DNA of 64,000 nucleotides from Botryllus schlosseri (lineage: Eukaryota). The DNA is taken from the NCBI GenBank assembly GCA_051294905.1, contig CM119372.1:4962001-5026000 (forward strand), read 5' to 3'. Under the pieces are notes generated by a model that was given only the letters and a program-made list of their open reading frames with translations, had not been told where the DNA came from and searched no databases. Shown piece after piece: positions 8,243 to 64,000 of the stretch. Positions within the stretch are counted from its first letter, which is position 1, and every line of letters starts with the position of its first letter. The position numbers and the translations under genes were made by a program.

Positions 8243-8736
8243 CATACGTCTCATTAACTTCAACGCAGCTATTGACGTACAATTACGCTAATAAATGTAC
8301 TGAATACTGCTTTGGTCTCTATGCTTCAGGCCTAATGTTTACATTGAATACGATTCATCCTTGTATGGGTGGATAAATACGCGTTTAACGTATCTATTCA
8401 GGAATTCGGGCCCGCTAAGCATCCCATATCCGGCCCGTCGACTGCAGAAGCTGCCCGCTCCTGATAAATACAAGGGTGCGAAGTCTATTGACTGAAATGC
8501 TGTATGAAGGATGCAGAGACCAGTGATTCGTAACTTTAACAACACTTGCACTAATTATTATGTTTATGTTTATTGTTATTATTCCCATGTTACCATATAG
8601 ATTACTGGTGCACAAAATGAACTGTGCATCACCAGAATGTTGAACGAACATAAATATCAAAGTTTGATTTTCGTACAAAGCGAAACATTATAAATGAATA
8701 TTGATTGCATGTCGATGGGACTTGTACGCTCTTCCC

Positions 8737-29507: not shown

Positions 29508-31916
29508 GAGGTGGTGGTAACGAAGTACTTCTACTTTTTCGAAGTACTCAAGTAGTTTTCCTCTACTTCTGGTACTGACTCAAGTATATATTTTTTTCGC
29601 TACCTCTACTCCTACTTCGTAATATTTTGTGAACTACTTATACTTACTTTTCGCTATTTTCAGTTTATCAAGTAGAAGTAGTTTAATCCCCCAATAAGAA
29701 AGATAACCTAAGGAATTTGGGGGCCGTCACCAGTGATCAAATGCCCAAAGTGCATGAGTGGACGTCCCATAATAGCCTTCGGGTTAACGCTGCGAAATCC
29801 CAATTATTGGTCGTGAACTCCTGCGATAACCTAACCGTTGACATCGCTGGCCAACCAATTTCCAACACTAAAAATGCCAAATACCTTGGTGTTTTACTGG
29901 ATTCGGACATGTCCTGAAAGAGTCACATACAATCACTCAAACCACGACTATCGAAGGTATGCGGTCTATTTCGCCGCCTTAGCTACATTCTGCCAGTCAG
30001 CGTGCTGTTGATACTCTTCAACTCTCTATTCCTATCAAAGTTACAATACGGAATTCTTTGTTGGGGTGCTGCCTGCAAGAATACAATTGACCCACTGCAA
30101 AAACTTCAACATCGGATCATCCGTATCATTGCCAAAGCCCCGCGGGGGCCTGGATGTGCAACTGATAAATCGCTTCTCAAAAGATTTGGTGTTCTAAACT
30201 TAGAAGATATGAGGAAGCTAGAAATTGCCAAGTTTATGTATCAGTTCCATTGCGGTCAATGTCCCTCAAATTTCAAGGACTACTTCACCTCGGAGACAAA
30301 AGCGCACAAGTACAGCACACGCGCGTCAACGAAGAACAACTACCATATGATCAGGACTGAATACAAGAAAACGCATTGCTCTATCAAGTATGCCGGATCT
30401 CAATTGTGGAACAGCATCTCGCTGGCTATCCGACAGTCGTCGAGCATGTCCGCATTCAAGTCGAAATACAAGCAATTTCTTCTAAATCAATACTAGCCAG
30501 TCTTCAGGTTTACCGGACCACGACCTAACATCGACCTCGCCCTCCGCCACATGCCACCCCATTTTGTCGCTTGCGTCTTATATTCTCTGCATTACTTTTC
30601 ATTCAGTGTGCATGCCTCTTATTTACTTCGCCTAGGCTAAGGTGGGTGTCTGATCTTAATGGCTACTCCAAGTTGTTTCGACACCTTCCTATCTTTTCAT
30701 TGTATCGCAATCTTGTGATGTTTTGAAACGATGAAAATATTAATAAACCTGACTGACTGACTGGGCTGTTTTCACGTAGTACCAACATTTAATTTTGATA
30801 AAAGTCATGCGATACCCTGAATTTTCGTTGCGCTTCGGGCATAATAGATATGGAGTGACAAATCTGTTTTAACGAAAGTATCGCTGAATATAATTTAGAT
30901 ACCGGGTTGCGTGGTTCCGTTCACACTGCATTGTCGCCTATATCAAATACTTCATCACAGAAAGTATGGCCCCATAACGTTTGAAACTTCCGTCTCGCAA
31001 TCTACCTATTATACCTAGCAGCCCATGACGTGTCCTAATCTGGAAAAGTGGACTTTGACTTTTTCAACGTTAGACCTGTTTTAGTAGACCACCGTTGAAA
31101 CTTTCTGGACAAAGACATGAAAGTTATTTTCCGCTTGTTAGAAGTAGTATTTGTATTCTAATTATAGTTTCAGTTTTCTGTTTGGAGAACATACATGTGG
31201 AAGCATAAAAGCAAGTGTAGTGATGCCTTATATTTTCCGAAAATAAAGCTATACACTATATCTCATTTTTTCGATCTGCCATATTTGTAATTAAACTTAT
31301 CACGCGAAGTGTTAAAGCCGTATCCGACACAACTTCTCCGTATTGTTCCTCGACTGAACTAGGGGCCTTATAATATGGGGACGGCGCCATGCCATGATAT
31401 TCTCTAAAACGGGGTGTTCGAGAAAACAAAGAATTATATCATTGCATTTCCATATCACTACTAACATTTACATCCCATGATGTGGACGACTGCTTATTCT
31501 GTCAAAAATTTACATCTCCTGGGATGCATCAAAATGAATCAAGCTCTCACCCCTCCCGCATAGCTTCATTTGCAGCTTTTGACATTCCAGGAGAACAAAA
31601 TATGATCGTTTTCGCAACTACATATACTTACTTGAGTAGATTTAAAGTCAATCAATTCTACTTCTACTTCAAGTAATTCTAGGTTCCACATGAAAGAAGT
31701 ACTTCTACTCGTACTTGAGTGGATTTTCCGTCGCTATTTCTACTTGAGTAGCTTTCTGGACTTGACCACCTCTGTTTATTACTGCTTCTCACAACCATAC
31801 GCACTTTACTTGAGTAGATTTTAGCGTCGATACTTCTATTTCTACCTAAAGTAGTGTTATGATGACACTACTTCTACTTCTACTTGAGTGAATTTCTTGA
31901 CTACTTTGACCACCTC
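29508..31916. mobile_element. TACTT-repeat hAT-like element remnants interrupted by the LINE; boundaries approximate
   Basis: GAGGTGGTGGTAACGAAGTACTTCTAC start, similar to 2768; TACTTGAGTAG arrays at 31625-31915 ending in GACCACCTC; no clear TSD. Confidence 0.55.
29700..30762 (+). mobile_element. 5'-truncated L2/CR1-group LINE (RT C-terminus, 3' UTR, (GACT)n tail)
   Basis: WTSHNSLRVNAAKS...KYLGVLLDSDMS*KSHI...SKLQYGILCWG...LQKLQHRIIRII...HKYSTR...SIKYAGSQLWNSI...FKSKYKQFLL; in-frame TGA at 29915-29917; AATAAA then GACTGACTGACT. Confidence 0.93.
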
Positions 31917-34211: not shown

Positions 34212-34445
34212 TTGTAGTGCATGCTGCTTCGCTGTTGGCTTCATAACAGCTTCAGCTCCTTTGACAACGTGTTGGCAACTAGTTGACTCATCCATACCGG
34301 TTGAGAAAAACCTTGGTGCTGCTGCTTTGTCTTCATTTCTCCAATTGTTATCATAGCAGTGTTGTATCATTTGTACAGCATTCTTTTGCATTGTCAGGGT
34401 ATGTTGCAAAGTAGTCAGTCATAGTTTACTACCTCTACTGTCGTG

Positions 34446-35093
34446 ATGAGTTCTTCGGAAGAGGTTTCATGGATATCATGGTTTTGCGGCCTGAGGGGGA
34501 ATGAATTTTTTTGCGAAGTCGATGAAGATTATATTCAAGATAAATTCAATCTCACGGGCCTCAACGAACAAGTACCACACTACAGACAAGCTTTGGATAT
34601 GATTCTCGATCTGGAACCTGATGATGATCTCGATGATAACCCCAACCAGTCTGATCTAATCGAGCAAGCTGCTGAGATGCTTTACGGCCTCATACACGCC
34701 AGATACATACTGACAAATCGTGGTATCGCACAGATGTTAGAAAAATACCAGCAAGGAGATTTTGGTCATTGCTCAAGAGTTTACTGTGAAAACCAACCGA
34801 CTCTTCCGATCGGGCTGTCGGATGTACCTGGTGAAGCTATGGTCAAGCTCTACTGCCCCAAATGCCTGGATGTGTACACCCCCAAGTCGTCCCGACATCA
34901 CCATACAGATGGAGCATATTTCGGAACTGGATTCCCGCACATGCTCTTCATGGTACACCCGGAATATCGTCCAAAGCGTCCAGTGAACCAATTTACTCCG
35001 CGACTGTTTGGTTTCAAGATACACGCAATGGCGTACCAGTTACAATATCAAGCTGCACAGACGTTCAAGAACCCCACCAAGCTTCGGCATTAG
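34446..35093 (+). CDS. CSNK2B: Casein kinase II regulatory subunit beta, 215 aa, single coding exon
   Basis: [39 protein letters not shown]...acidic loop...CSRVYC...CPKC zinc finger...[29 protein letters not shown]; uninterrupted ORF from ATG 34446 to TAG 35093. Confidence 0.99.
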
Positions 35094-36962: not shown

Positions 36963-37372
36963 GCATAATGCTTATATACAAATCGTGTGTAAATGCCGCA
37001 AAAGCATCAAGGGCAAAAATATACAGCGTCCTATTCCACCTTGGCCTAGTGCCCGGTGTAACAGTGTTCAATCTTGAAGATTCAGCTGTCTTTCTCTAGG
37101 TCGACGCTCTTCCTTACTCTTTCCGCATCCTCCTATGTCAGGGGTCGGCAACCCTTTGCTAGTTGCGGGCCAAATTTCGGGTGTATAACTTTTTGGCGGG
37201 CCGGAATTTTTCTTAGTACTATATTTTACGCTCACTTCGGTATATTATCCTACATTGCTGCAATCTCAATCATACCAATCAGAAGACACATGTATTTACA
37301 CTTCAACAACACAGAATAATTGTGACAATTGACGCAGCTTGCTCTGTGAAAGGTTTTCAACTTCTGGTAACA

Positions 37373-38156
37373 AGTCAGCGTGCTTCTGCCAGTCAGCGTG
37401 CTGTTAATACTCTTCAACTCTCTATTCCTATCAAAGTTACAATACGGAATTCTTTGTTGGGGTGCTGCCTGCAAGAATACAATTGACCCACTGCAAAAAC
37501 TTCAACATCGGATCATCCGTATCATTGCCAAAGCCCCACGGAGGCCTGGATGTGCAACTGATAAATCGCTTCTCAAAAGATTTGGTGTTCTAAACTTAGA
37601 AGATATGAGGAAGCTAGAAATTGCCAAGTTTATGTATCAGTTCCATTGCGGTCAATGTCCCTCAAATTTCAAGGACTACTTCACCTCGGAGACAAAAGCG
37701 CACAAGTACAGCACACGCGCGTCAACGAAGAACAACTACCATATGATCAGGACTGAATACAAGAAAACGCATTGCTCTATCAAGTATGCCGGACCCCAAT
37801 TGTGGAACAGCATCTCGCCGGCTATCCGACAGTCGTCGAGCATGTCCGCATTCAAGTCGAAATACAAGCAATTTCTTCTAAATCAATACTAGCCAGTCTT
37901 CAGGATTACCGGACCACGACCTAACATCGACCTCGCCCTCCGCCACATGCCACACCATTTTGTCGCTTGCGTCTTATATTCTCTGCATTACTTTTCATTC
38001 AGTGTGCATGCCTCTTATTTACTTCGCCTAGGCTAAGGTGGGTGTCTGATCTTAATGGCTACTCCAAGTTGTTTCGACACCCTCCTATCTTTTCATTGTA
38101 TCGCAGTCTTGTGATGTTTTGAAACAATGAAAATATTAATAAACCTGACTGACTGA
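37373..38156 (+). mobile_element. 5'-truncated LINE copy, near-identical to 29988-30762
   Basis: Same ORF2 tail and 3' UTR with only scattered substitutions; (GACT)n tail; ACAAG flanks both ends (possible short TSD). Confidence 0.93.
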
Positions 38157-44277: not shown

Positions 44278-44842
44278 TCCGTGCCTCACCAGCCATGAAC
44301 CTCACCGCACGTCACTGATTCAGACTGTGCTTAGGTTGTTTACGACCGGCTGAGTCCTGTACAAAATTGGGCAAAGTGATAGTCACGGATGTGGATGACC
44401 AGCTACAAATGATGCAAACGTATATGATGATTGTCCCCCTAATATGGATAAAAGAAACGGGGCCCAACTACAGATATGTCAGAAATCTCTACTATAATCC
44501 ACTATATATACTGTAACCCCACTCGAGTCTGCCACCAGTGTCGGAAAGTGCGTCTTCCATCTTCCGCTTATTCACGCTGATGACTTGCGCGAATGAGTAC
44601 CGGTCGCGTCGTGGTTGGTCGCTTAGAATTTGCAGGCACTGCTAACAATTCTATGTAAGCTCACTGTCTTCGGTATATCTCAACGGAAGTACGCGCGGGA
44701 TACGATTGCACAAAGTTATGCTATACATAACATTTTCACTTTTCTAATACAGCGCATTTGGACTGGTGGTCGATACCGGCGAATTATACATAGGTAGACT
44801 GCAGACGTGTATTGCACTTTACTCAGGTGTGAGGTCCAAAGG

Positions 44843-47800
44843 ATGAAGAAGAAAGTTCTTCCGCGAGTTTTCTTTGATGTCGAAATTGGCGGAAATACTG
44901 GTACTTAAGCCACATTTAACTGATCAATGTGACATAATTACATAGAGTTCTATTGCAGCTGGGAGAATCGTGTTCGAACTCTTTTCTGATGTCTGTCCTA
45001 AAACAACTGAAAATTTTCGAAGCCTCTGTACAGGTACGGCTCTTTGTAATTTCTTGGCTACAGTACTTGCAATTTGGATGATCGCTTTGAGAATGTTCTT
45101 TAGCAGAATTAGCTTTGTTTGCCTTCTTTTCATATCACCTGTTCTGTATATTGACCCGAATGATGAGTGGAATGGACACTAATGCAGGGCCTGTATGGAA
45201 TCGTTGTCCTGTGCTCACACAATTCTATATTTTTTAATCATTTTTTATTTAAAAATTACTTTATCTTTGAGAATCATCTCTGCTCACATGTTGATGTTAT
45301 ATCAGGCAAAACGCAAAACGTACCGAGGTTCCAGTAGGGATGCAGTGCATTAGCTTAATATGACAGTATCCATATAGGATCATTTGAACACAAAGATATC
45401 ATATTTGAAGCGAATTGCTAACATTTTCTTGTTAGCTCCATAATAAATACCCCGGTAATGTGATGCTATATTATTCTAAAATATTTTCTAAAATCAGGTG
45501 AACGAGGGCTTGGTGAAACGACTGGCAAGCCGCTGCATTATAAGGGAGTTGTATTTCATCGAGTCGTCAGAGATTTTATGATACAGAGTGGAGATTTCTC
45601 AGAAGGTACTTCTTAACTGTGTAAAATATGATTTTGGGGTATTTTGCAACGGTCATAAAATATCATGACCATTTTTAGTTATGTACTGTATGAAAATGCT
45701 TACAACTCCATTTGTCTTTCAGCTATCAGTATATTCTGTACACAATATTCCATGTGGATATGTATGAAATATTGCAAATTGTTTATCAAAGTCGAAAAAA
45801 AAGGCTGAAATGATTCTCGTAGTCAGCTGGCAATTGAAATGATTAGCAAACAATTGTTGCTATAAGCCAATTCTTATTCAACTCTTTTCGACATAGTATG
45901 CATTCATAAAAATTTCATCCTGGTTCACATTCTTCTATAGTTCAGTCATATACAGCTGTACCTTCCCTTGGAAGAACAGGCCCTTTCATCGATTTCAGGT
46001 GTCGGGGGGCCAGTATGCATGGTGATTGGTGATTTACCCTGTTTCTTATAGTTGCAAAGTTCAACAATGCTCCGATTTCACCGCCATATTACGATATCAA
46101 CTAAATGCAATGGGTTTAGCTGGATTTTATGTTGTAGTATACCTATCATTGTACATTTTGCCTGGGCTAATTATATTGCAATTCAGATATCCGTAATGGC
46201 TATTGGTAAGTTCTGTAACATGTGAAAGCTAGACATAAGTTTGTAGAAATAGTAAGTGGAGATACGTTTGGTGCATAGATGGTCTCTTGAATGTGGACAT
46301 GAACAACCTATTGAAACACCCCAAAAACTGTAGGCCTATACCATGCATTCCTGCTTTGCTATATCAAGTGAGCCTCTTGTGTTTCATACAACATACTATT
46401 CATTTCCTAAACATTACCCCACCTGTTGCACCACCAGTTGACTCATTTCGCTTTGTAACAAACAATCGGCATATTATCCATGGCTGTTTTTAATTTGAAC
46501 TTAAACTTTGTCAGGCAACGGGCGCGGAGGTGAAAGCATCTATGGTGGCTATTTCGCAGGTGAGCCGTAGTTATAATTGTTATGGTATGCTGGTGCATAG
46601 GCGCCGAGTTACGGGGTGGCGCAGCCACCCCACGACACGTTTATGGGGTGGCGGCCACCCCATACAAAAAGATTGAACGCCTGCCGTCTGCGATTTTAAA
46701 TCATCAGCGCAGTCAATTAGCGAGTCCGTGATAGCGCGTAAAGGCCAACTATTACCATTAATAGATACGAGCGCGAATAATTAAATACGCTGCTTCGTCG
46801 GCGGTGACAAACTAGTGCTTAAAACGCCCCAATAAATTGTAATAGTGATTAATAATCAGACAATCGAATGCAACCTCGTTCACGATGTCGATTTCGACAC
46901 GCTTGCGCTGAGAAACACCATGTTCCCGCTCGACCAGACGAGTGAATTCACGTTCTCCTTTCATTATTTAAATTGTATTTGCGGCTTTTGCGCCCACATT
47001 CGTTTACAAAATAATTCTTGAGTTAGTTCCGTAACAGTCTCTTTAATACTTTGCCTGCCAAGGCCTATCATGGGAATTACCAGCAAATGCCAGCAAACAA
47101 TGAATTTTCGACTAGTTGCAAATCTGACAGGGATTGGTCATGCTGATAACTAGTAACTTTGTACATCTAATGACAAACATTTTTTTTCAATATCAAGGAA
47201 TTATAAAAATATTGCAATTTTTTTGCTGCTCATTTTATGAAAAGCCATCTAGTGGTCAAACGAAAACAAGGTTGTCCAATTGTATATAGATGTGATTTAA
47301 AAAAATACTTTAGGCAACGAAAATGCTTGTTAATGACAACAAGTCTATTAAGTAGCCTCGATTACAGCCGTAATCCGGAGTTGAAACCAATTCCGGGCTT
47401 TACTGTACCCATTTGAAAAATATCCTAAATATAGGATCACTGGCACTTTTAGGGACTGTGTAAAATCATAAATATAGGATTGCTGGCAGCGAAAGTGTTA
47501 ACACTTTGGAGCTTTGGAGGCTTGGAGCGCGAAATAGGACAGTGTGTTTGTGTATGCTTGCGAATTGAAAGTCATTCCTGCGCAAAGTGCGCATATTCAT
47601 TACCCTAACAAGGCTTTGCCAACTTTTATCGGGAAATGCAACAATGCAGCTCAAACGTCGTTATAATGAGCAAACAATTGTCGCGATGTCAGACTTTTTT
47701 TTAAATTTTGATTTAGATAAAATAGTGTTTACGGTGACCGATTCTTTGTTTATTTATTAGAGTTGTGCTCACCGTAAATACTATTTTATCCAAATCAAAA

Positions 47801-50800
47801 TTTTTCGACGGCAATAACTCCGCTTCCACTGGTTGGAATTGAATCAAATTTGGCGAGGATCGTTTCTATAGACAGCCTAACACTTTAATGGAGTGAACAG
47901 AAAATTTTCAAAATTTTTATTATTCATTTTTATATAATAAATAGAAACTTTCTTCCCCTGTAGCAAAGCGGTTACTGGTTGGAATTGAACCAAATTTTGT
48001 GTGTAGGCTTAAATTAGGTAACCTAACAATTTTATCAAGTAGCCAGTAGGATTTGTGAAAAAATTCATTTTTGAAGAGCCCTATTGAACAGTGTTTTATT
48101 GCGTGTGCCTGCTAGTTGGAATTTATTCCAGTGTCCATAATATTAATCCAGTTATGCTTTGCGGACGTAAATCGGGAAATGCAGCAATGCAGTCAAAGTC
48201 GATGTTTTAATCAGCAACCAATTGTCGCAAAGTGTTGGTGGTAAAGGGTTAATTACTGATTGGCCGCGCGCGTTTATAATCATAATTCTTGTCTGTCTTT
48301 CGTGTTCCAGAATTGTCGCGCCGTGTTACATCTCACTGTGCTCAGTCCAGCGACGAATGCCGAGTGCGCGGCAATCAATGACCTAATTTCGCAATCATCT
48401 CAGCGGGAGATCGAGTCGCGGTAGATTGTTCGATGCGATATGCGTGCACAGACGAATCTCGCTAATTGGTCGCGGCCCCTCGTAACACTGATAATGCGAC
48501 TTGTTGAATTGCAACTGAATATTAGCGTCAGAAGGGTCGTTTATAAAGGACGTGGTTTTGCGTTTTAAAAAGGAGGGGGTTATGTCACCTCCCTGGCTAC
48601 GCGCCTGCCGCCGCCCCATGCAAAAATAAAAGTCGGCGCCTATGTGCTGGTGTATTCCGGGCATGGAAGGAAAATTATTTTGCTATTGATCTTTACAAGA
48701 ACGAATACTTGGTTGTAGATGACTTGAGATTTTGATTACGGTTGCTTATACTGCAACTTATCACTTTGAATTTGTAGATGAATCGTTTGAACGGAAACAT
48801 GAACGTCCGTTTCTGCTGTCCATGGCGAACAGAGGCAAGAATACCAACGGATCTCAATTTTTTATGTAAGCTTGTAACCTCGTAACGGCTTTGTGGAATA
48901 TTCTGTCATTGTGGCCTATATTTGATTTTCAGAACGACCCAACCTACACCTCATCTAGACGGGTAAGTTTTCCTTGGTCGACTGTCAAACTTTGTTGAAA
49001 TACAGTCTTCGATATCGCTATCCCCCTAAACCCGGGATGTGACTTTATTGCAGTGTTCATGTCGTGTTTGGACGTGTAGTTGACGGCGAGGCGATAGTTA
49101 AAAAAATTGAAGCACAGCCAACTGACGCCAGCAGTCGCCCGAAAAGTGAATGTAAGATTGCTCACTGTGGGGAACTTGTTTTGGCTAAGACCAAGAAAGT
49201 AAAAGGTTTGTATCTCTGAAAAAAACTTGATTTTTGATACTTTTGATGTTTCATGAGAAGTCTAGGTGATGTAGTACTGGAATTATTCTTTGTGGTGGAA
49301 TAAAGGTACATATTTTTACTTTCCACATATCTTTCATAATGTCATGACATCATGATGAGTGATTTTTGAATACTCGACTTGAAGCCTAATAATTCGGGAA
49401 TTAGATCAGTCATTTACTCGATTTTGCCAAGCTCTAGGTATAGTAGTCCCTTTGATCGATTGTGCACTGTACAATACATTTACCATAGTGAAAGAATGAA
49501 AGAAGGTCTTGTTGCCGTCGATTACGGATTGCGACTAAGAATTTTAGCTCAATTATTGACAGCATATATAAAAATTTGATTTTGACATGGTTTTATTTGT
49601 ATATCCGGCAGAATATTTCTTGAAAGTAATGTCTGATTACTGGTTTCCTTTGATTCCTAAAGTACTGTGCTGTAATGGTCTCTGTGTCGGACATCTTGGA
49701 AAAGCGGTTTCTTGGTTTTTTACGCAGCGTGGAATCAATCCGATGTAGCCTATTTGTAATCTTATCGGTGTGAAATACATTCGACTTGCTCTCTAAATTA
49801 AAGTGGTTCATATCATAGCCATCGAAATCATCAATTGCTGGCACTTATTTAGCTGCATCTATGCTACTATTGCTACTGCTTGTCATCTATAAGTCGTGTT
49901 ATCTCAATATTTTGCAGCAAAAAAGAAGAAAGAGTCCAAGAAGTCCGACAACGAAGATTCCGGAAGGTCCTCTCAGGAGTCGTCAGGCTCGGAGGACGAC
50001 AGCAAGAAAAAGAAGAAAAAGAAAAAGAAGAAGCACAAGAAAGAGAAGAAGAAACGTCGGGAGGAGAAAGTCTCTAGGTATCCCACAATTTTGATCGTTG
50101 ATCATTTGTTATTGGCGTGTCGGTTTTGCCTGGCTTGACTTTAAAATTTTTGAAACGTGTCATCTCGACTATAAAATATGCGGTCAGTCAGAATGACTCG
50201 TGACTCGGAGGTAGTGTTTAAAGTCGTTTATTCACGCTATTAAGTTCGTTGCGATTTGAATTAGCATTTGTCTCTTTGGAAAAAGCTGTAATCCTGATGC
50301 GTTTTACAGTGCTGAAGACGACAAGGAAGATAGCAAAGTTGCGGAGATCGCCGCAGACGCTTCCCACAGCACTGTGAGTGCCGCTGAAGTGCCTCCAGTC
50401 CCGGAACAAAAGTTTTTGATGCGTAGCAACGAGAGGCAGGCGAGGTAGCGTGAGGAATTGCTTTGCGTTAACGGGCGATCGGTTTACGACAGAGATTTGT
50501 CTGTTTTACAGCGATAGAAGTAACAGCACCAACACGCCAGCGTCGGCGCACAGCCAGGGACGTCAGTGGGTGTCTCGGTCCGGTCGGAAAGTCAAAGGCC
50601 GCGGAGTCCTGGTAACTTTACTGTTCTTGAACTATTTTTAGCGCTGACCACTAAATATTTTCGAATTGCTTTTTCAATCCGAGGCTTTACTTTCAGCGTT
50701 ACCGCACTCCGTCCCGATCGAGATCGAGAAGTCCCAGGAGAAGAAGCTTCCGCAGCCGTCGGGGCAGCGAGACGCCGCCTCACTGGCGCGAGGCCCAGCG

Positions 50801-52100
50801 CGGGCAAAGACCCCTGGACGAGGCGACGGGCGGGTCCCGGGACTCGCCCGAAAGGTGGAAGAGGAGGTCCCGCTCCCCAGACGACAAGGACTCGGAACGC
50901 ATACACAGGTCGAACGATACTAAATCCGCTCGTAGTAAGAGAGAAGATGACGACACCGGGGGTAGACATAGGCGGGGTAGAGACGCCGGGCGTAGGTCTC
51001 AAGATAGGGACGGCAAACACCGAAGTGGGCGGGGCGACGGGGGGTCCTGGAGGAATGGCGGGGCTGTCGGATCCAAGTCCCGGGACAGGGATAATGAACG
51101 CCGGACGTCGGGGGACAGGTCCGAACAACGACGGAAGCGTAGATTCCGTGAATTCAAAGAGGGTAGCGACACGGAACGTGTAGACGTTCTAGCCGATGAT
51201 GGGAATCACATTGAGATAACCGTGGAAGATGTAAAGGACGAGGAAGGTTCTGCCGGAAATGTCAGGGACGCGAAGAATGCCGCGTCGGACAATGAAGACT
51301 CGGTCAGTAATGTCATGGACACCATGGATGCTAAGAAGGGTGATTCTGCCAACGACGTCAAAGATGTTAAGTCAGATAAGTATGATAGCGACTCTGGCAA
51401 GGAAAGCTCGGACCATGGCGGTGCTGAAACCAAAGTAAAACCGCCAGGAGAATCAGATAATGAAGAGATGGATACTGGCAATGGTGTCGAAAATGTTGAA
51501 ACTTTGCCTACCGCAGATAAACCGGTAGAAGGGAAAACGTCTGAGGATCTTGTGACTACAGTGGTAACAGAAGAGGAGGTAGTGGAAGAATCTAGGGATG
51601 ACACATCTCAGCCAGAGGTAGTCAAAGATTTGATCCAGCCGATCGGCGATAATAAAGAAGAGAAAATTGAAAATGATGAGAAAAGAGATAGGGACGCGTC
51701 TAGGAAACAGCCCCGGTCAAGATCCAAAAAGCGCAGCCGGTCCAGAAGTCCCAGACGCCGGTCTAGAAGTCCACGACGCAGACGTTCAAGGAGCCGGTCC
51801 GACCGTAGACGGCCGTCCTACCCGAGCCGGAGACGCTCGAGGTCCAGGTCTCGCGACAGGCGACGCAGGCCAAGTCCCAGAAGGTCGCGGTATGACAGAA
51901 GGAGGTCGAGGAGCCGGTCTCCAAGACGGCGGTCCTCTAATTACCGAGACCGGGGCAGAAGGCGCAATTCGAGAAGCCGCAGCAGGTCCGGCCGCAAAAG
52001 ATCGAGGTCGAAAAGCAAGGGGTCGAGATCGCGTAGCCGTGGCGCCAGGCGGGGCAGTTCCAAGGATAGCCGGTCCTCGCGATCGTCCTCTTCGGATTAA
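44843..52100 (+). CDS. PPIG: RS-domain cyclophilin (PPIG/NKTR family); exons 44843-44900, 44959-45033, 45498-45605, 46515-46559, 48778-48865, 48933-48962, 49054-49205, 49918-50077, 50310-50444, 50512-50611, 50697-52100
   Basis: The spliced ORF reads [84 protein letters not shown]|...[34 protein letters not shown], then a K-rich tract, [40 protein letters not shown] and a long RS tail. All junctions are GT-AG and in phase. Confidence 0.96.
46596..48644. mobile_element. hAT (CATAGGCG-ended) element in PPIG intron 4, with a nested GGGC-type element at about 47450-48083
   Basis: CATAGGCGCCGA...TCGGCGCCTATG; exact 8-bp TSD TGCTGGTG; internal hairpin at 47703-47801. Confidence 0.9.
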
Positions 52101-52614
52101 ACAGGAATGGGGTCAAATCGCATGACATTTCCCTGAAAAAAGCCTCCGCCCCTTCGGTTTTACCGGTAGATAATTAATTGAACGTGATAGAGGATAAATA
52201 CGCCGTACGCTCTCGAGTGTCGGGAGTCTGTGTTTGCATCGATTGAGTTAGTTTGATTTCGGTGATTGTTGACGTTTTTTCTACCGAACGAGATTTCCGG
52301 GCCCGTTATCCACTCGTGCGGTGGTGTTGCGGAATGAGTTATGAATTTCTCACGTTTGATTTCTTTCTTTTTCAAACACCGCAAAGCCTACCTGCTCTTC
52401 GCTGGAGATTCAAGTACTTTTTCGTTGACCGTAGTTACGATCTGTACCTCTAGCCAGGGTTTGAGTGCGTGGCGGGCGACACCTTTTATCGCATTTGACT
52501 TGTGTCTAGTCTGTTGCTTTTACGATAGGCTGTCGTGTAGGTAGATGTTTTCTAATTACTTATTCGCCTTGTCTCGCTGGTTTCGATCTTAATGTCTGCG
52601 TTGAACGATTGGTC

Positions 52615-52620
52615 AATAAA
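52615..52620 (+). other. Probable polyadenylation signal of the PPIG transcript
   Basis: AATAAA about 515 nt after the stop codon, followed by GT-rich sequence. Confidence 0.55.
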
Positions 52621-54708
52621 ACCGTGCTAGATTTTGGACGCTTGTGGTGCGTGATACGTCATAGAATTGTTCTCGCTTAGATTAAGGTTCAACTCAGAGA
52701 ATATAGAACTTGCTAACCTATACTGTCCTAGTCCTGGGGAACAATGGCGCTAATCAGCAAGCCAGCGGCGAACCCCAAATTTTCAGAGTCACAAAAACGG
52801 TAATCTATCACATAATACATCTAATATATTACTACAGAATACTTTCGCAAGAAAAGACCCATGCGTCCACAACAGTGTCAAAAGACCAAGACTAATAAAA
52901 CATGATTTTCAAACAAAAACAAAAATATGACAATGAATACTTGCTGCAATTAAGCGAGACCTTTCTGTATCAGTCGGGTGTGTCCAACCCCTGAGAGGGA
53001 CCCCTGGAGTTGTTGTGAACCACGGTTAAGAATTACTGTTCTAGAATCTAGATTTCGTAGCATTAATAGGAACAGACAGTTCTTACTTCTTCGACAGATG
53101 TCGACTGCATTGATACAGAAAGCAGTTCCAAATAACATATTCAATTTATCTAATGACTTTCAACTCTGGCTACATTTCGATAGTGCATTAGCGAGTTGTT
53201 TTATCTGCTTGCCGCATTCCAGGGCTATGGGTTGAAATCACTAAATTTGACGAGTTAGGGTTGGTCTGGTTATGAACATGAGCAGTGATACGGGACGGTT
53301 ATATGCAGCTTAAGTGTGTGTGAGTGAGCGTAGAGATTTGGGAGTGCATTTCATCCGTCACTTTGTGTTATGCTGTTTTTACACCGTTTATTACCTCAGA
53401 TGATGTCTATAAAATGTCCAAGGTGAGTTGTTTGTTACATCACTTTTTCTCGTTCTTTGTGATTGATAAATGGTGTCGCCCGTCCCACTCAAGCCTGTGT
53501 TGTATTATTAGTCAAAAATCTCAACACTAAATTTTGTGTCTTCCAGCGAAGGCAGTGTGATTTTGTGTCAAGGTTTATACAAATCCAGAAAGGTAAGCAG
53601 ACTTATGACGGTCTATCTATTTACATCGGTACATGTGGCCGGCCTCGGCAAATTATCCCGACACGCTATATTTTACGTTACAAATATATATTTGTAATCA
53701 ATAACTACATGTTGGACTATAATGTATTTCGAAATTATGTGGAGTGCATGGAAGTGTCGCTGTCCGAAACTGTATTTGCATGCGCAGTTGAGGCGAGCGT
53801 AGTAGATTGTTGGTGCTTTGTGCTGAGTGATTCATCTCGTTTCCTGCTTTTGTTTTGGGTGAGTATGGTTCTGATTTCAGACGCAGTATTCGAAATACTG
53901 TTTGCTTCTCCAATTTGAATCAACTATCTATTATTAGGCATCTGTTTGGCGGAAATTCTGTTGAGAAACAAAATTATGTACCAACTAGACAACAAGACTG
54001 TGTCGAAATCAATTTCTGTATTCTATTGAATGATTCAAGCATGAAATGGTAGTGAAAGATCGTGTAAGATGTAATTTTGTTATCTTGTCCGTAAGTTGAA
54101 TTCGTAACACTTCTGGAAAAGTATCTAAACCAGTGGATCTCGCATCATGGATTTTCATGAAAAAAGCCCACGCTTCTCTGATATTAAATCACATCTTGCT
54201 GTCGAGTTTAAATCAGTTCCGACGTTTCTATCCTCTCTATACTGTGCAATGTTTTCGCTTAGGGATGCTTGGTTTGATTTTGGGTTCGATCAATTCAACT
54301 TAGCAATCACCGCATTTTTTATGCATGTTGCACGGGTGTGGTTATCACGCTTTACTTAACAGTGAAAGGGCGTAATGAATTCCGATTCTATCGCATTGTC
54401 ATCACTTATTTAAATGAAAGAATAATATCAATCCAAGGGGTTGATTTATTAACAAAAGCTGAATTGTATTAATCATGCATGCGCGTGTGTTCAACCAGCG
54501 TTTCATAATTTATGGCTTTCAATATTACCATTGCAGGTTAGTATCAGCGGCTAATTTGAAATCTGGCTTTCATTTGTGTTCTTATGCCTTAGATATGTGT
54601 CTGACGCAATACCCAGTGTTGTAGATGTTATTCGTATTGGTTTCATCTCTCGTTCATCATACACAGGATAACTACGTCTTGGGGAAGTGATGATGGGAGT
54701 GAAGAGGA

Positions 54709-57700
54709 ATGGACGGAAAAACAGCCCCATCATGATAATGGAGATTGGTCTGATCTTGATGGCCGTCAAAATATGGAGTTAGTAATGATCGGTTTCAGGT
54801 CTGCGACATGTGTCTAGTATATTTTGCTATTGCAGGTTTGAAGATGGAGAAATTTGCGACGAGAACTCCTTGCTGAAAGTTGATGGCATGGATGTGTAAG
54901 CTGCTGCGTCTTTGTAACCGTTAAAGACTTGGCGACTTAACAAAAACGATATTTGTTGTATTGATAATACTGGCAAAATACGATCGATTTTCAGTCCATT
55001 CACAACATCTAGTTGTATAATATCCCGTGCTCGCATTCACCTTTTTATACCAAGGTACTAAATCCACCTGTGTTCTACTATGTTGGGTCCTATGAACAAT
55101 TGTGATTGGAAGTTGCAGTTGTACCAAGTATGACCTACTATGGCTACATTCAGTGCAATGATTATATGATTATAGACGGTTATTCTTGACTAGTGTTACA
55201 TGTAGGATTTGAATTACAGGCATGGGTTGGCAGGCCCCGCTTTACCACCTGGGTTTAAGAAAAACAGGTAAGTTTATAGTGTACTGTAACTACACCCAGA
55301 TTTTCATGTGTATATACTAATGGCATCTTCATAAACTCGATGTGGTATTATCGCATTTTCTGGGATATCTGAGCAAAAGTTGGATTACCTAATAGACTGT
55401 CATTCCTTGTGAGTACAGTGATGGGGAAGTGTTTCAAAATTTTGGCTCCTTGGGGATTAGCTTATCAAGTTTTTTCTTAGTCCTTCCGATGCTATGAATG
55501 TTTTCCGCGAAGAAAACCAAATTGAGTGTGTTTCTTGATCTTCAATTTCAATTCAACAGAATAATGGTGAATTTCCCACAAAACGTTACTGAGAAATGAT
55601 GTAGAAGGGACCTGTTATTAGGTCGCATTGTGGTCGCATTAAGTCGCATCCTACAAATTTCAGAATGATCTACATGTATTTGCCGCATTTGATACATTCT
55701 GACCAACTCCACGCGAATAATTGTTACAGCCACAAATCCAATTCACAAAAAACCAGCAGCAGGAAAAGAAAGAAGAAAAAGAAACACAAAAAGAGCAGTC
55801 TCAAGAAAAGCAAATCACCCATTCACAAAGTGAGTGGGATCCAAGTGTTTTCTTGTACAGATACCATTCTTAACCATCGAATGTTTTCGAGTGATGTCAT
55901 CTTTGGTGATATGATTGTTGGTATACAATGTTCTTGCCGTTTCTTTACTAGTTGCAAACGATTACTTCTGATGAGTGTCAGCCGAAAATATTCAGGTTTA
56001 TTTCAATGTGGTAATGGAAAACTATTGTATACTGAAGGTAGAGACCTTCAAGAGTCTCTTCATGTTCGTAACCATGTCTTGTCATAGAACAAAGACAAGA
56101 ATGAAGATCGTTCAAAATCAATAAGTCCGGAAGAGAATTCGAATCCGACAAATCCCATGCGAAGCAGATGGGACAGCCCCGACGAAGATGCGGAACATGA
56201 TGATATAAACGCACCTCCAGATACCGGTTTGTAGCCTCGTTGAGAATGTTGATATTGTAGTCGAAGTTTTCTCTGATACTGAATGTTGCCCGTGTTTGAC
56301 AGACTCTGATGAAGCGACGGAGCTGCCTGAAGCACCAGATGTAGTTATTGACCGAACAAAAACTGACATCTTTGCAAGTAGTGACGACGAAGTGCAAAAT
56401 AATGATGTGGGAGGTAATTATTATCAACATGGTTCTATTAGCACCAGTGCCACATTGAATTGGATAATGTCACATCTACATGTTGATATTGTCAATAAGA
56501 CACGGCGTGCTAGTCTTCGGTTGGACTTTTCAAGGCTCACGTTGCAAATGATGTCGGAGGAGTACTTTTCCAAAAAATTTGTTTGCATACTCTACTCATT
56601 TGTAGTGATAGGCGAAATTAAGTACCCGGGTGTGGATTTCGCTCTGAATCGAGTGTTAAGCTTCTAGCCAAGTTGTCTAATATTACTCATGCCAGGGCTC
56701 CGAGTCACAAGTAAATCTCACTTTCGACTCGAGTCAAGTCGAGTCATTTTTAATTCACCCCCCCCCCCCCCCCCGAGTCCAAGTCATTGAGTTGACTGCT
56801 GATTTCGAGTTGAAGTCTTGGTAAAACCACTTTTTATAACTCTGATTAGTGATATCAAATGGTTCGCATTTAAAATACACTGATTTCGTCACTTTTAACA
56901 GTTTCTGGTCGCATTTTCAAGCACCTTTACTATTCTTTGAAATTACAATGAAATGTCGGTCTTGGCCGGCCGTCTGAGACTCGAGTCATATGACTTGTTC
57001 CGAGTCATGCACAATGACTCGAGTCCGCGAATTATTTAATACAATACTCCATTTGAATTCCATTGCTGTAATCAATGCATGTTGCTTTGCTCATTACTTT
57101 ATCGGTAATCTTATCAGTGTTAGGTACTAGTATCTGTTTTGTCATTGCTTATCCTCATTTGCATGTATCCATTCTGTTAAAATACTCCTATTTCACGTCT
57201 TCAGGTCGCGATCTCGAGGCTAAGTCCTTGAAAAGAAGAAAGTCCGATTCTTCAGACAGCGCGCAGATGGTCACAAAGAAACAGTGAGATCATAGCCCTG
57301 CTATTTTTTTCCAACGTTATTAACATTTTGTAGCAAAGCTTGTGCCGAAGTTTATATTTTTGTTGAAATTTGACACTCCTCTCCCATATATCACAGTTCT
57401 TGCTCCTGTGATCACGATAATTCAAGCCAGTAACTATCAACTTTCTAAATTATATTAATCTTGTGCTTAAATTAGCGATCTTTGATGTTTTTTTGGAATA
57501 TTTTTGACTTAGCTCCAATTTTTATATATCTAGACTTAAAACGTCAGATAGAGTCAGCTGCAAAGTTTCCGAACTCCAAACCAAACACGTCTCAACACGT
57601 GAACTCAAATCAATCTTAATTCCGATTGCTGTGTGTTACGATATTAATCCTTGTTCCGACTCTTCCAGGAAAGGTGTCGAAAAGCAGCGCCCCAAAAAGC

Positions 57701-60700
57701 AGTCTAGGCCGTCGAATTCGGCACGGCTTTTTGAACAGGCGCGAAACGTAATTTTGAAAGCGGAAAAAGAACTCGCGGCTATCGGTTACCCCGGCGCAAC
57801 GAAAGCTTTGAGACACGGACTGCGTCGCTCGAGGTCCTATTCGTCTTCGAGCTATGAAAGCCGGTATGTTATCAGTATGGATGGGTACATACAATGTGGA
57901 TTAAATTTAGGATGGTGATGACAAAAATATCAGTACAGACTCATTGGCGTAGCCAGGGGTTAGCCACAATTTTCGTAGTCTTCGTATATGATCATGGCCG
58001 TAATATAGAATATTTCCTCAAAGATTTAGTTGACTTGGAGTTTTTCTTGGCACTTCGCGATTTATTGTCACTCGATTTATTGCTTTTTGTATTGGTATCC
58101 CCTCTGGAAAATTGAAAGTTACCAATAGGATAAGATTTACCGAATTATTTCAAACTATATTCGCAATTATGAGAGAACGATCGTCCGACATGACATGAGA
58201 CTTCGCATCTGCACTCGCAAAAAGGTCGTCGCGATGAAACCTTTGCACAAAATGATAGACGCGTGTTTGCCGAAATCTTCGATATTGATAACTCCAATTG
58301 CTGAATAATACTCTCCATTATTAACCAAATTCATTCATTAACTTCGAAAACTTTTCGCGCTCTGCGCGGCTGGGTTATTAATGCACATTGGATTTACATG
58401 ACATAGTTATGATTGATTTTGATGCGGACCAAGATAAGTCTTGTTTTCACCGTATACCTAATCTGGTTTGCTCCTATCGGACGACTAAAAAGGTCAAAGG
58501 TTTTAATCTCATATGGCCCTTTGATCGAAAATGTTGGCCGCCCCTGACTTGATTTTGCTCAGTCCCAGTTATCGGCAAGATATTTGACCGGTGCGCGTTC
58601 TAAACCGATTGCTTCTGTAGGGACGGGAGGCGTGAAAAATACAGACGCAGACGCAGACGCAGTTACTCTCGATCGAGATCGCCGTCGTACGACGACAGAC
58701 GTGGATATTCTCGGTATTCCAGATCTAGGTCCAGGTTGGTGCTTAGTTTGTTCGTGCATTTTTGAAATTTCAAAATTCTGGCTGGCTGAGAAATATTCAG
58801 CGCCAGTTTACGTGTGTGCTAGTTGACATGTTGGCTAAGCTCCAATTTAAGATGTTATAACTAAGGAAATTACTCTTTATCCCCAGTTTACATTTACATC
58901 AGTAACCTCGTGTTGACCGGAGTTGATGTCTGAATAATCGCTACTAATTTTGTTCAAATTAAGTTCTTAATGCCATGATTGTCTCCGTCTAAGTGCAAAC
59001 CATGGGGGTGACTTCGGAAAAAATTGGTTCATCGGGCATTAGTATTGTTCAAAGATAACTTTTGTGCTACCGTAGTTGATAAAATTGTTAGGTTGGGTAA
59101 AAATTGACTGCACATCAGATTTGTTTCAACTCAAAACTGTAGAAGCTTAGGTATTAGAGTTGCAAAAATTTCAATTTATAAAAAAAATGAAAAACATTTC
59201 AAACTTCACTGGCAACCGCGTAAAATTGTTGCAATGTCTATAACAGTGGTCCCCAACGTGAGCGATATCCCACCCCAGTGAATGATTTTGAGAAACAAGG
59301 GGACGAAAATGGTAAAACTTCCCGCGAGATATATTTAATGAACACGGTCAAAAAATGGACGCTAAGACGGCTTATTCTGCATATGACGTCAAAAAAAGGT
59401 CAACTCGACGGAAAATAGTCATTGAAGCCGGTTTTCCTGGCACCTACCACCTCGGAACAAATCGCCATTTGTAGTAAATTCACCCAGCGATCAGAGTAAC
59501 GTGAATAAATTTCGCGTTTATCTGTCCTCTTTTTCGGGGCCGTAGCAATGGGGGACGAAAAGGGCGATGAGTCAAAAAGGTTGGGAACCATTGGTCTAGC
59601 AACCGTGCATGCCGAATTTGGCTCAATTTCAACCGGTAGGAGTGAAGTTATTGGAGTAAAAAGTTTGGATTAAAATAATACCATTTACAGTAGCTTTCAT
59701 TAATAATCACAGAATTTATGGTACCACTCTAAATAGTAATGATCCCTCCTTCTTTGTCGACTTTCTTTTGCTGGTTTATATTTCAGGCGTAGCAGGTCGT
59801 CATCTCGGTCAAAAAGGCGAGATTATTATCCCGAGTCAAAGTATGAGGATCGTCGCCGGTACTCCAGGTCCTCTTCGAAATATCGAAGACGATCCCGGTC
59901 ATATTCCAGGTACGGTCTTGTCACATGCAAGGTGACATGATTTCGTTTTGTAGCTCGGTTTTTCCTATGACGTGTCTGGTTTCAGAGTCACCAGCTCAAG
60001 ATCGAGCGTATCGTCGGGGTCGTCCCGCGATAGCATAAACGACAGCTGTTCTTCCGCATCTGTACGAAGGAGGTCAAACTCGAAGGGTTCTGATCGTAAA
60101 AATTCGAAACGACCCACCACTGTCTCGCGAAAGTCCCAACGAAAAGAAACTGGTAATCAAGATTATTATCTTGAGATGGTGTAACTCCGGTGTCCAGGTT
60201 GCTAGAAATATCTGTGCCAATCAAAACAGCAAAATATGAGTCGTAGGACACCGTGTGTAAAGGAAGGTAGCAGGGGTTTTACGAAAATCCGAGTAGATTT
60301 TGGATTTGATCAAATACAAATAAGATACAAATCCGTATTTTGGATCCGATCCAACAATTCTCATATCAGCAGTGTTGGTCAGTAGCAAGGTACCTTTGAG
60401 TTTCGTCTCTGTGCTCAAATGCATCGCATCAACGTCCGTGAGACTTTGTCGCATTCTTCAATTCTATGAAATACGCACTTTCCCTTTCTGCTGTTCGAAA
60501 TTGGATTGTTACAACACAACGCTATCTGCAATAACGACGTAGGTAGGCTACATCTTGAACTCTCTGAAAACGCCGTGCGATAATGGCGAACATATCTGGC
60601 TATCATTATCCGGAATTCTAGTTGTAAAACTTCTTTTTAAGAACTCATTCTGGCATAACAGTTCCTATAAGGTGCTAATGATAATTCAGCAATGTTTTCT

Positions 60701-63700
60701 TCATAATATGAAGATATATGATGACGTTATCAAGGTCGTACATGCATTTTTAGTTATCGATATTGAATCGGTCGCGTTTTTTCAGCTCCAAGCAAGTCTC
60801 TCGAATCTGCCGAGTCTGAGAAAGTAACGGCGTCCAACGTCCGCAAAGCAGAGAAGGCAAAGAAAAAGAAAACGGTGACGGAAAAATTGACCTGGCAACC
60901 GCCTTTGGAATATGGGGAAGAAGAGCATTCGGAAGCGGATTTCGTAAGTTTTGATAGCTTGCTAATTGAACTGTGACAAGAGCTTCATATCATGTTGATG
61001 CGATAAGTTTGACGCAAATGTTACATATATTCACTGACTTTTCATTCAATGCCACAAATGGCAAAAATCAAGCAACAAGACTTGACCAAATGTCTGTTTC
61101 CAAATAATTTAAGGACAAAATTTTGAAACATCTGTCTCAAGCAGATATTCATCGCAGCACGAGAATTAGCCTATGCACACCATACTCTTGGACGTACAAA
61201 TCTCCGATATACAATTGAATAATATTTTGCTACCGGTATTGAAATAAACCTGCATATTTACGGTTCACATTCAGCATGGGTAATCATCAGCAACTAGTAA
61301 ATATTTCAATAGAACTTTATATACCAATAGTCGTATCACCAAATATGACGTCACTGGCATAAAAAATTCAAACAATCGATGCCAACAGATAGTTTAGGCT
61401 CAATGTACTAAATATCCAAAAATAATACGCACTTATGGTTATTTGAGATCTGTTTTTATCTCAGGGTGGAGTAAATGTCAGGAATGATGAGATTAATAAG
61501 GGAACCCACAATACAGCAATCGACAAAGGTACGTGTCGTAGACTCATTAAGCAATCAACGTGGTATATCTATCTCAACAAATTCCGTTTTGTTGACAGTT
61601 CTTCCCGTAAAAGACGATGAAATCGACCAGCTTCTATCGAACGGAATCGAAGATAAACCAGTCTCCGGCCTTCGTGACAAGTCCATATTCAAAAAACGCG
61701 CCAAAATGCTTCAACAATTCAAGAAGAAACAAGAAGAGGACAACGTTTTCGGGTTTGCGAATAAAAAAGACGCAAACTCCACGAACGCGATCGACAATAA
61801 AGCCGGTAGCGTCGATGAATCGCAACAGAGAAGCAATGACGATATTTGGATTGAGAAAAAGACCCCGTACAGTTCATCGAAAATCCCGCCTAAAGTTACT
61901 CTCGAAAACGCGCGGGCAGATTCTGCCTTGTTAGGCGTTCTGAAACGGAAAACCACTGCCAAAACGGAATATCGTCCATTCCGTGTACAGCAGTATAACG
62001 CGCCGCGTGAAGAGACACCTTCAGAGGATAGCGAAGAGGACTGGACGCCGTCGGCCTTGAAAACGGTGAAAAAACCAATAACCATCAACATAAAACTTCC
62101 TGGTGCGCAGACGGAGAAAACTAACGATCCAGCAAGCCATAAAGCGCAAAATAACGGAAATGAGAAGGTTCGTAAACGTAAAAAGAAGAAGAAACGTCAC
62201 ACCAATCCCGGCGATTCTGCTATGTCCTTGGAAATGTTAGGAAAGACGTTGAAGCGGTGCCGCGAAAAAGCCAACGTGACAACTGAAAAACCCGCAGACA
62301 ATACAAAGACGAAGGAGCATACCGTTGACACTGATTCCAAACTAATCGGTGGAGCCTCCGGCACTGCGATGGCGCCGGAAAAGAAAATCGATTCGCAATT
62401 CAACAACCAATATCACAACGCAATGTGGTATCCCGCGCAGAATCACGCCATGATGAATAGGTGTCGGGCGCAGGTGGTGAGGCCGGTACGCGGGTATCAT
62501 TACCCGTACGCGTACCAGGCCATGCGCACGGCGAGCATGCGGTATCCTATGCATCCGGGGATGCTCGCGATGACGAGCATGGAGCCTCCGCCGTTGCCAG
62601 AAGACGGTAAGTCACGTTGGCCACAATAGTGAATAATATATTTGTATTGAAATGAACCCGAATATTTTTGACTGACACCCGTCAGGGGTAATTGTCAGCA
62701 ACTAGTAGAGAATTGAAAAGGACATCGTATATTGACAATCGTATCACTAAATATGATGCCGCCTGCGTGAAAATTCAGGTTTATTTCAATATGATTGTAT
62801 TATTCAATCGTGCATTGAAGTTCACTGCATCCGAGAGCCTCTTCGATTGTGTGCGTGTTGTGTTTCTGTTGTATTTTATTTTTGTTCTATCAAAAAACTG
62901 GCAACGAACTATTTCTACTTTTTCCCAATACTAGAGTAGGTTTTTCCTACCCTCGCTACTTACTCCAGTGGTTGTGTTATGTTAGAACACTTCGCTTCTG
63001 CTTGATTGATTTTTTACGCAAAACAGCTTGCTTTTTAGACTTTGGATTTTGTAAAATACAAAGTAGTAGTGTTTGGGTAGGTTTGCACACCTATATGGCT
63101 GATATTATCATACCAACTGGGCCAAATACACCGTGCACCATGGTATCTGAATGTACTTGCGAAAATTGAACCTATTGTGATGTCGTTATTGACAATTAGC
63201 GGCTACAAGTATGCGGCCGCACGACCAAATCAACTTTTTTGAACCACCTACCCGGATATCAAAATATGGTAACCCTATACTATTGACCACTGCTGTAAGT
63301 ACGGCGCCCTTGCCCCTTCATTAATAGTTACGTTCTTGTATTTAGAATTTCCTGAACGACCACCGGAGCCTAAAGAAAGTGAGTGGCTTAAGTTGTAGTT
63401 AGTGTTTTCGCAGCCATGCAGTGATGTGTTTCCAAGTTGTTTGATTCCGACATGACATGAGATACACAAGTAGCTTGAATTACACTTTGCCCGTTCTAGG
63501 GAAGAAATTGACCGACAAACAAGTGATGAATCTCTTCAAGAAGAAAAACATATCTGCGGAAACACTGCCTGTAATACTTCAAGACGATGAGGAGTACGTC
63601 CGCCAAACGCATAGTATTTATGCAGAGTAAAACGGTATTTTCGATACAGAAAAGAGGTGAAATTGCCGTCGCCCGCTCGATCCTTTGGTAGCGACCATCG

Positions 63701-63784
63701 CCGAAAGAGGAAGAGATCTTATCGCTCGAAGAGACATTCCAGCTCAGACTCGTATTCGTCTTCACGATCAAGGAGCAGCGATAG
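54709..63784 (+). CDS. Large RS/K-rich nuclear protein with an NKTR-like motif; exons about 54709-54798, 54836-54895, 55730-55829, 56088-56226, 56303-56413, 57205-57283, 57669-57863, 58621-58734, 59787-59909, 59986-60152, 60786-60943, 61465-61528, 61599-62606, (63346-63383?), 63500-63593, 63650-63784; probably continues past the window
   Basis: A chain of in-phase GT-AG exons gives [24 protein letters not shown], several SRSRS/YSRS exons, KLTWQPPLEYGEEE, DWTPSALKTVKKPITINIK and PPPLPED. The start codon and the 62606-63500 junction are uncertain. Confidence 0.8.
56693..57025. mobile_element. GACTCGAGTC-family MITE fragment with a poly-C run (56758-56774)
   Basis: GAGTCAAGTCGAGTCA arrays; internal similarity to 19283-19572 and 23552-24033. 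Confidence 0.7.
59244..59593. mobile_element. hAT MITE nested in an older element (about 59003-59700)
   Basis: CAGTGGTCCCCAAC...GGTTGGGAACCATTG; TSD GTCTATAA / GTCTAGCA (6/8). Confidence 0.7.
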
Positions 63785-64000
63785 GTATTGTTGTCATCAG
63801 TTGATCTCTTGAAAAAATGTTATGATTCTGTGCAATATCGAATCATTGATCAGTATGGAAAATTTTTAGCAGAATATGTTTCTTGAGTTGAAAGTAGTAG
63901 TAATCGCGGCGAGGTACAGTAACATGCAAAAACTATTTGAAGCAGAAGTACAAATTGAAGGTAGGGATATCATTCGAGTAGTTTCATTATGTAGATTTGG

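Follow-up and report, generated by a model that had tools for sequence, protein, structure and literature searches.

A tunicate RS-cyclophilin gene in two halves: a probable intronic alternative last exon between short and long tails in Botryllus schlosseri

Two neighbouring units on the forward strand of Botryllus schlosseri DNA read, by homology, as the 5' and 3' halves of one ancestral RS-cyclophilin gene. Unit A encodes a complete cyclophilin with a short charged tail, and unit B encodes a long tail of the NKTR type. We favour, with a probability of about 0.58, one ancestral gene with an intronic composite alternative last exon whose long form is a minor product. The locus lies in a 64-kb stretch (hereafter the window, the whole of the DNA analysed), in which no second copy of the gene was found, and is a real, well-supported oddity built from known mechanisms. 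The window also holds an intronless casein kinase II beta ORF (34425-35093, + strand; Pfam CK_II_beta, E 2.9e-77) flanked by near-identical ORF fragments (29918-30496 and 37371-37892, + strand); these have no Pfam match and, we presume, resemble LINE C-terminal ends.

The original prediction placed the end of a complete PPIG-type coding sequence at 52100. That end is borne out by a model of 11 GT-AG exons with RNA-supported introns (Table 1), which runs from the ATG at 44843 to the stop at 52098-52100 and encodes 784 amino acids with zero internal stops. Pfam Pro_isomerase matches lie above cut-off in four of its exons, and a search of solved structures with exon 7 returned human PPIG as the top match and NKTR lower in the list. 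Nine active-site residues are kept (R66, F71, M72, Q74, A112, F124, H132, L133 and H137), checked against the equivalents of Arg55, Phe60, Met61, Gln63, Ala101, Phe113, Trp/His121, Leu122 and His126 given in part of PMC2911226. By these sequence criteria unit A is predicted to be an active cyclophilin PPIase. It has a histidine at the Trp121 position, like vertebrate PPIG and NKTR in the same portion of that source (PMC2911226). The predicted architecture (N-terminal cyclophilin domain, K-rich linker, SETPPHW block and RS-rich tail) is that of the PPIG/NKTR (Moca-cyp) RS-cyclophilin family.

Table 1. Positions of the modelled and candidate features in the window.
Feature	Position	Strand	Detail or basis
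Unit A first exon	44753..44900	+	probable trans-splice acceptor before 44753; ATG 44843
Cyclophilin domain, exons 1-7	44843..49205	+	modelled exons, Pfam, RNA joints, active-site residues
Unit A exons 1-4	44843-44900, 44959-45033, 45498-45605, 46515-46559	+	
Unit A exons 5-7	48778-48865, 48933-48962, 49054-49205	+	
Exons 8-10, K-rich and linker, common to both forms	49918..50611 (49918-50077, 50310-50444, 50512-50611)	+	
Exon 11, shared 5' part, family motif SETPPHW	50697..50908	+	aligns with all tunicate orthologues
Putative internal phase-2 GT donor at homologous junction	50909..50910	+	score -4.0; rank 1 of 62 by homology
Short-form read-through tail, 396 aa	50909..52100	+	R/D/G-rich, then acidic, then RS-rich; unspliced X7 contigs
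Short-form 3' UTR, AATAAA 52615-52620	52101..52700 (end approximate)	+	single-cell depth
Candidate upstream exon, B-only RNA	53400..53422	+	donor 9.3
Candidate upstream exon	53547..53592	+	acceptor 9.1, donor 9.8
Candidate first coding exon, B-only protein	54475..54536	+	ATG 54475 in frame with B; donor 10.0
Unit B first four exons	54667..55829 (54667-54777, 54836-54895, 55220-55267, 55730-55829)	+	orthologue alignment resumes right after 50908
Unit B middle exons	56088..60152 (56088-56226, 56303-56413, 57205-57283, 57669-57863, 58621-58734, 59787-59909, 59986-60152)	+	30-aa block with 77% identity to Styela; RS stretch
Unit B exon with NKTR-type motif WQPPLEYGEEE (60893-60925)	60786..60943	+	
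Unit B late exons	61465..63784 (61465-61528, 61599-62606, 63346-63378, 63500-63593, 63650-63784)	+	gene extends beyond window

RNA was mapped to 44500-64000 from raw runs chosen by species label (X23, bulk; X21 and X22, single-cell) and from a contig set, X7, which was taken for RNA by guess, though it is spliced; depth dips in this mapping are not reliable as findings. Nine of the ten unit A introns are in the RNA joint table. The tenth is removed in X7 record 2, which then continues unspliced from 50696 to 51218 and crosses 50908 unbroken, and X7 contigs give unspliced coverage over 50696-51425. Depth of X7 ascends along the last exon of unit A (46.6, 68.7 and 155.9) and is 3.85 past it. Single-cell sense depth reaches 136 and 26 in 52312-52962 and drops to 0.07 and 0.45 in the bin that follows; this places the short-form 3' end only to a 650-nt bin. 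The read-through contigs together with this 3' peak establish the short mRNA as a real transcript that ends independently near 52.6 kb. This short RNA is the major product at the locus. It reads through past a weak internal 5' splice site to an intronic poly(A) site, as expected of a composite alternative last exon.

At the 5' end, 95 X23 reads carry a non-genomic leader before 44751, where an acceptor scores 9.6. We take it for the spliced leader of ascidians, with a template-switch tail in front of it; its sequence was not matched in the published literature searched. An 8-nt insertion allele at 44802, in the 5' UTR, is present in 29 of 165 X23 reads. Joints in X23 as far as 49205/49918 have 51-112 reads and the following two have 0, near an A-rich tract (49997-50053). 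The drop is likely due to internal oligo-dT priming at that tract, and may instead reflect a truncated cyclophilin-only RNA.

A downstream multi-exon RS/K-rich unit on the same strand, lacking a cyclophilin domain, had also been described. It corresponds to unit B, modelled with at least 17 GT-AG exons from 54667 to 63784, open for at least 913 codons and continuing past the window end. No cyclophilin remnant was found after 50908, and a Pfam scan of nine unit B exons gave nothing above cut-off. The motif positions proposed for this unit hold for WQPPLEYGEEE (Table 1), and RSRWDSP and WTPSALK...ITINIK are both in its translation. The entry of unit B had been put at the acceptor 54836; the modelled coding frame begins one exon before it, at 54667-54777, and 54836 is seen joined to 54777. 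Unit B is transcribed. The joint 54777/54836 appears in all four runs (4, 27 and 6 reads, and a contig depth of 23.9). It is the one of 16 modelled unit B introns among the joints listed (15 of 131); the basis for the other 15 is their GT-AG ends, open frame and homology. In the motif exon, part of the X7 depth (16 of 29.4) carries a 6-nt in-frame deletion at 60853. Dispersed repeats lie in introns at 47500-48400, 55930-57030, 61200-61370 and 62630-62780, where foreign reads inflate bin depth.

The relationship between the units emerges from other tunicates. A search with the start of exon 11 found 8 proteins from 578 candidates, including cyclophilins of Styela, Clavelina and Phallusia. One with the Clavelina protein added P0017, of the tunicate clade, and vertebrate and invertebrate relatives among the 120 of 849 matches listed. 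Four tunicate proteins have the first ~388 residues of unit A followed by unit B blocks, colinear with the window: Styela clava XP_039266378 (LOC120341883; 1616 aa; named NK-tumor recognition protein-like in version 1), Clavelina XP_076825996 (1231 aa), Phallusia CAB3264346 (1506 aa) and P0017 (1239 aa). For Styela and Clavelina these sequences are gene models taken from a database. In the three named species the cyclophilin domain is 75-87% identical to that of Botryllus over 174 aa and the tail has blocks as in unit B, in like order; Styela residues 677-1476, for example, align to 57721-63686. Each of these species is recorded with one long protein, and no short form of it was found in the searches, whereas in Botryllus the joining intron contains a read-through tail of 396 codons together with a stop and a poly(A) site. 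The N-terminal 395 aa of six homologues gave no match in the window downstream of 50908 at E up to 1, so there is no duplicated segment between units A and B. The original prediction had offered a single ancestral locus and tandem paralogue halves as alternatives. The former agrees with orthologues that join both halves and with the lack of an N-terminal copy downstream; the latter fails for want of a duplicated segment.

We placed the ancestral joint by scoring 62 in-frame, stop-free pairs of an exon 11 GT and the acceptor 54667 or 54836 against four orthologues. The pair 50908/54667 ranked first of 62 by homology (score 585; next 540), falls where orthologue similarity leaves the short tail, and yields a joined model open for 1300 codons. 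The exit proposed earlier, at 50854, fared worse: a GT is present there in the right phase, yet its score is equalled or exceeded by 71% of 1277 GT sites, and 50854 joined to 54836 ranked 61 of 62 (score 321). The homologous donor is itself very weak. On a matrix built from the locus's own 27 modelled donors, with leave-one-out scoring, its score lies below all 27, the weakest of which scores -0.4. Of GT sites, 88% score at least as high, and its C at +3 is found in 0 of the 27. Stronger phase-2 donors lie in exon 11 at 51118, 51379, 51889 and 51985 (3.2-5.3). The positions 50900-50909 and 54658-54667 share 10 flanking letters, compared with 0-5 in the other 26 introns; this repeat may be chance, a duplication scar or a template-switch risk in RT-PCR. 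No A-to-B joint is among the joints listed (15 of 131), where one known unit A joint is also missing, and the table thus neither shows nor excludes such a splice. Set against the 27 reads on 54777/54836, X21 has about 85 sense letters in 50359-51009; X22, with 6 reads, has about 677 there, which fits the long form. The low single-cell depth of 50359-51009 was weighed as evidence that would disprove the long form and was set aside: X21 and X22 disagree, and bulk X23 dips too.

In a tree of 33 rows (hand-chosen from 131 proteins, midpoint-rooted and built without an amphioxus or lamprey row), the tunicates form one clade (100/99) and all 8 tunicate rows lie outside a PPIG+NKTR clade (100/98). 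The gene is therefore a one-to-one orthologue of neither PPIG nor NKTR. By this topology it is the pre-duplication co-orthologue of both, as the original prediction proposed.

The long tail nonetheless carries a mark of NKTR. The sequence WQPPLE[FY] is in the long tail of 5/6 NKTR-clade proteins (the exception being P0130, 805 aa) and 0/6 PPIG-clade proteins. WQPPLEFGEEE had been assigned earlier to NKTR, and rightly: identity to the window 11-mer WQPPLEYGEEE is 8-10/11 in the five full-length NKTR-clade rows (P0130 being left out of this count), 4/11 in six PPIG-clade rows and at most 5/11 in 300 shuffles. A motif filter passed 14 of 131 proteins, namely five of the NKTR clade, the long proteins of the named tunicates, two fragments and two that match more loosely. 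Sources name only P0109 and P0129 as NKTR and only P0020 as PPIG; the other labels are ours and agree with the tree. Among 145 proteins, a tunicate-only profile detected four of six NKTR rows (E 1e-6 to 2e-5), all but P0129 and P0130, and none of the six PPIG rows. The expected BLASTP similarity of unit B to NKTR held for the WQPPLE motif and for nothing else, and two other NKTR tail motifs (near P0129 residues 627 and 1187) are absent from the stored tunicate long proteins. The motif exon alone retrieved nothing among 100 candidates in a word-indexed search and two fragments only (P0001 and P0002) in a full scan; a full-text literature search for the motif returned no paper.

Vertebrate NKTR resembles the tunicate long form in its N-terminal cyclophilin, SETPPHW, WQPPLE after a K-rich stretch and terminal RS region. 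It differs in its two extra tail motifs, one of them shared with starfish and molluscs. Long proteins of starfish and molluscs have a looser WQPPLE form and this second NKTR motif that tunicates lack; the long tail is therefore probably old. Named arthropod rows have neither the looser form nor the second motif. The label 'PPIG-type' applies to the short form only in part. Its length is similar to that of human PPIG (784 aa against 754 aa in the available portion of PMC6315705), and its tail has the mixed-charge R/K/D/E/S composition and RS repeats of PPIG (SR-Cyp, CARS-Cyp) and likewise lacks WQPPLE, but it does not align with PPIG tails and the gene lies outside the PPIG clade. BLASTP of the 396-aa tail with low-complexity masking found no match among 128 stored proteins, the multi-cyclophilin proteins P0015, P0016 and P0018 being excluded, and an Atlas search gave scores all <0.9 (low recognition). 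Similarity between PPIG and NKTR proteins fades about 30 residues past SETPPHW; the tunicate junction lies about 47 residues past it.

Assembly products compared as proteins suggest that another tunicate makes several forms. P0010 (a 299-aa fragment, gapped internally) agrees with P0017 at 215/216 residues and parts from it right after the arginine homologous to codon 388. In P0133 and P0136 the sequence opens five residues ahead of the homologous acceptor and continues as the P0017 tail. We infer that the four come from one locus, as its short, long, and tail-only or intron-retaining products. In addition, a tunicate-clade genomic contig holds an intronless 374-aa copy, P0006 (L002 7503-8627, the same locus as L001 797-1918), which stops a few codons past the junction and is closest to Phallusia in the tree. 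About 10 kb downstream of it contain no long-tail match, and P0006 looks like a retrocopy of a short mRNA. P0005 and P0007 are similarly short (383-384 aa). Among six metagenome loci only L001/L002 were informative; L004-L006 are fragments. L003 is an intron-containing, non-tunicate-like gene cut by the contig end, in which the early intron layout is alike and a long tandem R/D/E-rich repeat comes right after SETPPHW (7780-8560).

Between the units, the 2 kb past the poly(A) signal contain three donors scoring at least 9 (10.2 kb of intron interior contain none; rough P 1e-4) and three candidate 5' exons for a B-only RNA (Table 1). The first candidate would fit the 28 unplaced letters of X7 record 5, which is otherwise unspliced over 53545-54780; the candidate first coding exon was not seen in RNA. 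This intron-retaining record and the joint contig fully account for the X7 depth of 10.8 in 54265-54915. At 54536/54537 one site is strong both as an acceptor (9.9) and as a donor (10.0), like a zero-length exon for two-step splicing. A start at ATG 53400 through an exon at 54499-54536 is in frame and was rejected, its acceptor scoring only 2.0. No spliced leader on unit B was among the loose ends listed (24, with 1453 others). Units A and B recall ascidian operons in being same-strand neighbours in a leader-adding animal. Ciona operon genes, however, abut within 100 bp (in passages of PMC2760879), while here about 780 nt separate AATAAA 52615 from the first candidate acceptor at 53400, and the units are halves of one gene.

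These observations suggest how the two forms could arise. They would share exons 1-10 and the opening 212 nt of exon 11, and the very weak phase-2 donor after 50908 would compete with the poly(A) site about 1.7 kb downstream. Usually the donor is skipped, 396 codons are read through and the RNA is cleaved near 52.6 kb, giving the 784-aa cyclophilin with its charged RS tail. More rarely, as homology suggests, the donor would be joined to 54667 to give a cyclophilin of >1300 aa with an NKTR-type tail. Slow splicing or cleavage in the intron might also release tail-only RNAs starting inside it, as X7 record 5 partly shows. Both proteins, judged by their family, would be nuclear speckle-type prolyl isomerases on splicing complexes. 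Composite intronic poly(A) sites that are in use typically have weak 5' splice sites, and in IgM and CSTF3 competition between such a splice site and a poly(A) site changes the C-terminus, as proposed here (both from portions of PMC10651852). Unlike in those genes, the Botryllus read-through encodes a long RS domain, and the downstream half may start from separate 5' exons.

The strongest alternative, possible though in our judgement somewhat doubtful, is that gene fission is complete: the donor after 50908 would be dead, A a stand-alone short gene and B a separate gene that lacks a cyclophilin domain and has gained 5' exons (53400-54536), its translation beginning at ATG 54475 or 54773. Its 5' end would come from its own promoter or from spliced-leader trans-splicing after cleavage at the A poly(A) site. 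The donor score of -4.0, the cluster of strong donors in the gap, the in-frame ATG 54475 ahead of a strong donor and the leader already used on unit A all argue for this, as does X7 record 5, which runs into 54667 out of retained sequence on its upstream side and is spliced further on. So do the climb of X7 depth on the last exon of A with its fall beyond, and the intronless copy at L001/L002, which implies that short forms can stand alone. Yet the GT, its phase and the two-sided similarity are kept at the exact homologous codon, tail-only products coexist with a long form in another tunicate and so are no proof of fission, and no independent 5' end of B is among the joints (15 of 131) and loose ends (24) listed.

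One locus spliced by another route, through a different exon 11 donor or in two steps via the AG/GT at 54536/54537, we regard as improbable. The four stronger phase-2 donors and the dual strong site would serve it, but the alternative donors insert sequence missing from the orthologues and rank lower, and no such joint is among the 15 of 131 listed. Very little credit is left for a PPIG-like gene beside an NKTR-like duplicate that lost its cyclophilin domain. Unit A does have its own stop and 3' end; that history is contradicted by the lack of a duplicated segment, by a unit B that begins where the shared part of A ends, and by the single clade of eight tunicate rows outside PPIG+NKTR. An assembly artefact at the 10-nt repeat (50900-50909/54658-54667) is just as hard to credit: the length of the repeat invites it, but X7 records 2 and 5 read through both copies in genomic context and the short tail is expressed. 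We therefore retain the composite alternative last exon as the preferred reading.

No paper on the tunicate gene or on a PPIG/NKTR isoform partition was found in our search, which left most subscription journals outside. According to parts of PMC6315705, NKTR is poorly understood and the tails of PPIG and NKTR are structurally unmodelled; the charged tail of PPIG serves, in excerpts of PMC12629991, as the model for how nuclear speckles retain mRNA in a dose-dependent way. Reasoning from that retention, a switch between two such tails is a candidate feedback point. The conserved tail motif, in a single-copy chordate gene predicted to make both architectures, allows a direct test of the role of the long tail. 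For annotation the locus is a warning: gene models will either split it in two or show the long form alone. Should the A-B link be lost, the locus would be a case of fission in which each half is expressed and the former junction can still be read.

A partition of ancestral short and long products into PPIG and NKTR is plausible. Tentatively, and with considerable doubt, we suggest that the chordate ancestor made short and long proteins by a choice between poly(A) site and splice, and that after the vertebrate duplication PPIG fixed the short and NKTR the long. Tunicates would have kept the switch, some resolving it without whole-genome duplication, through intronless short-only copies (L001/L002) and, in Botryllus, through an incipient fission that frees an NKTR-type tail protein with no cyclophilin domain and with new 5' exons. 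The locus is a possible living model of how vertebrate PPIG and NKTR arose.
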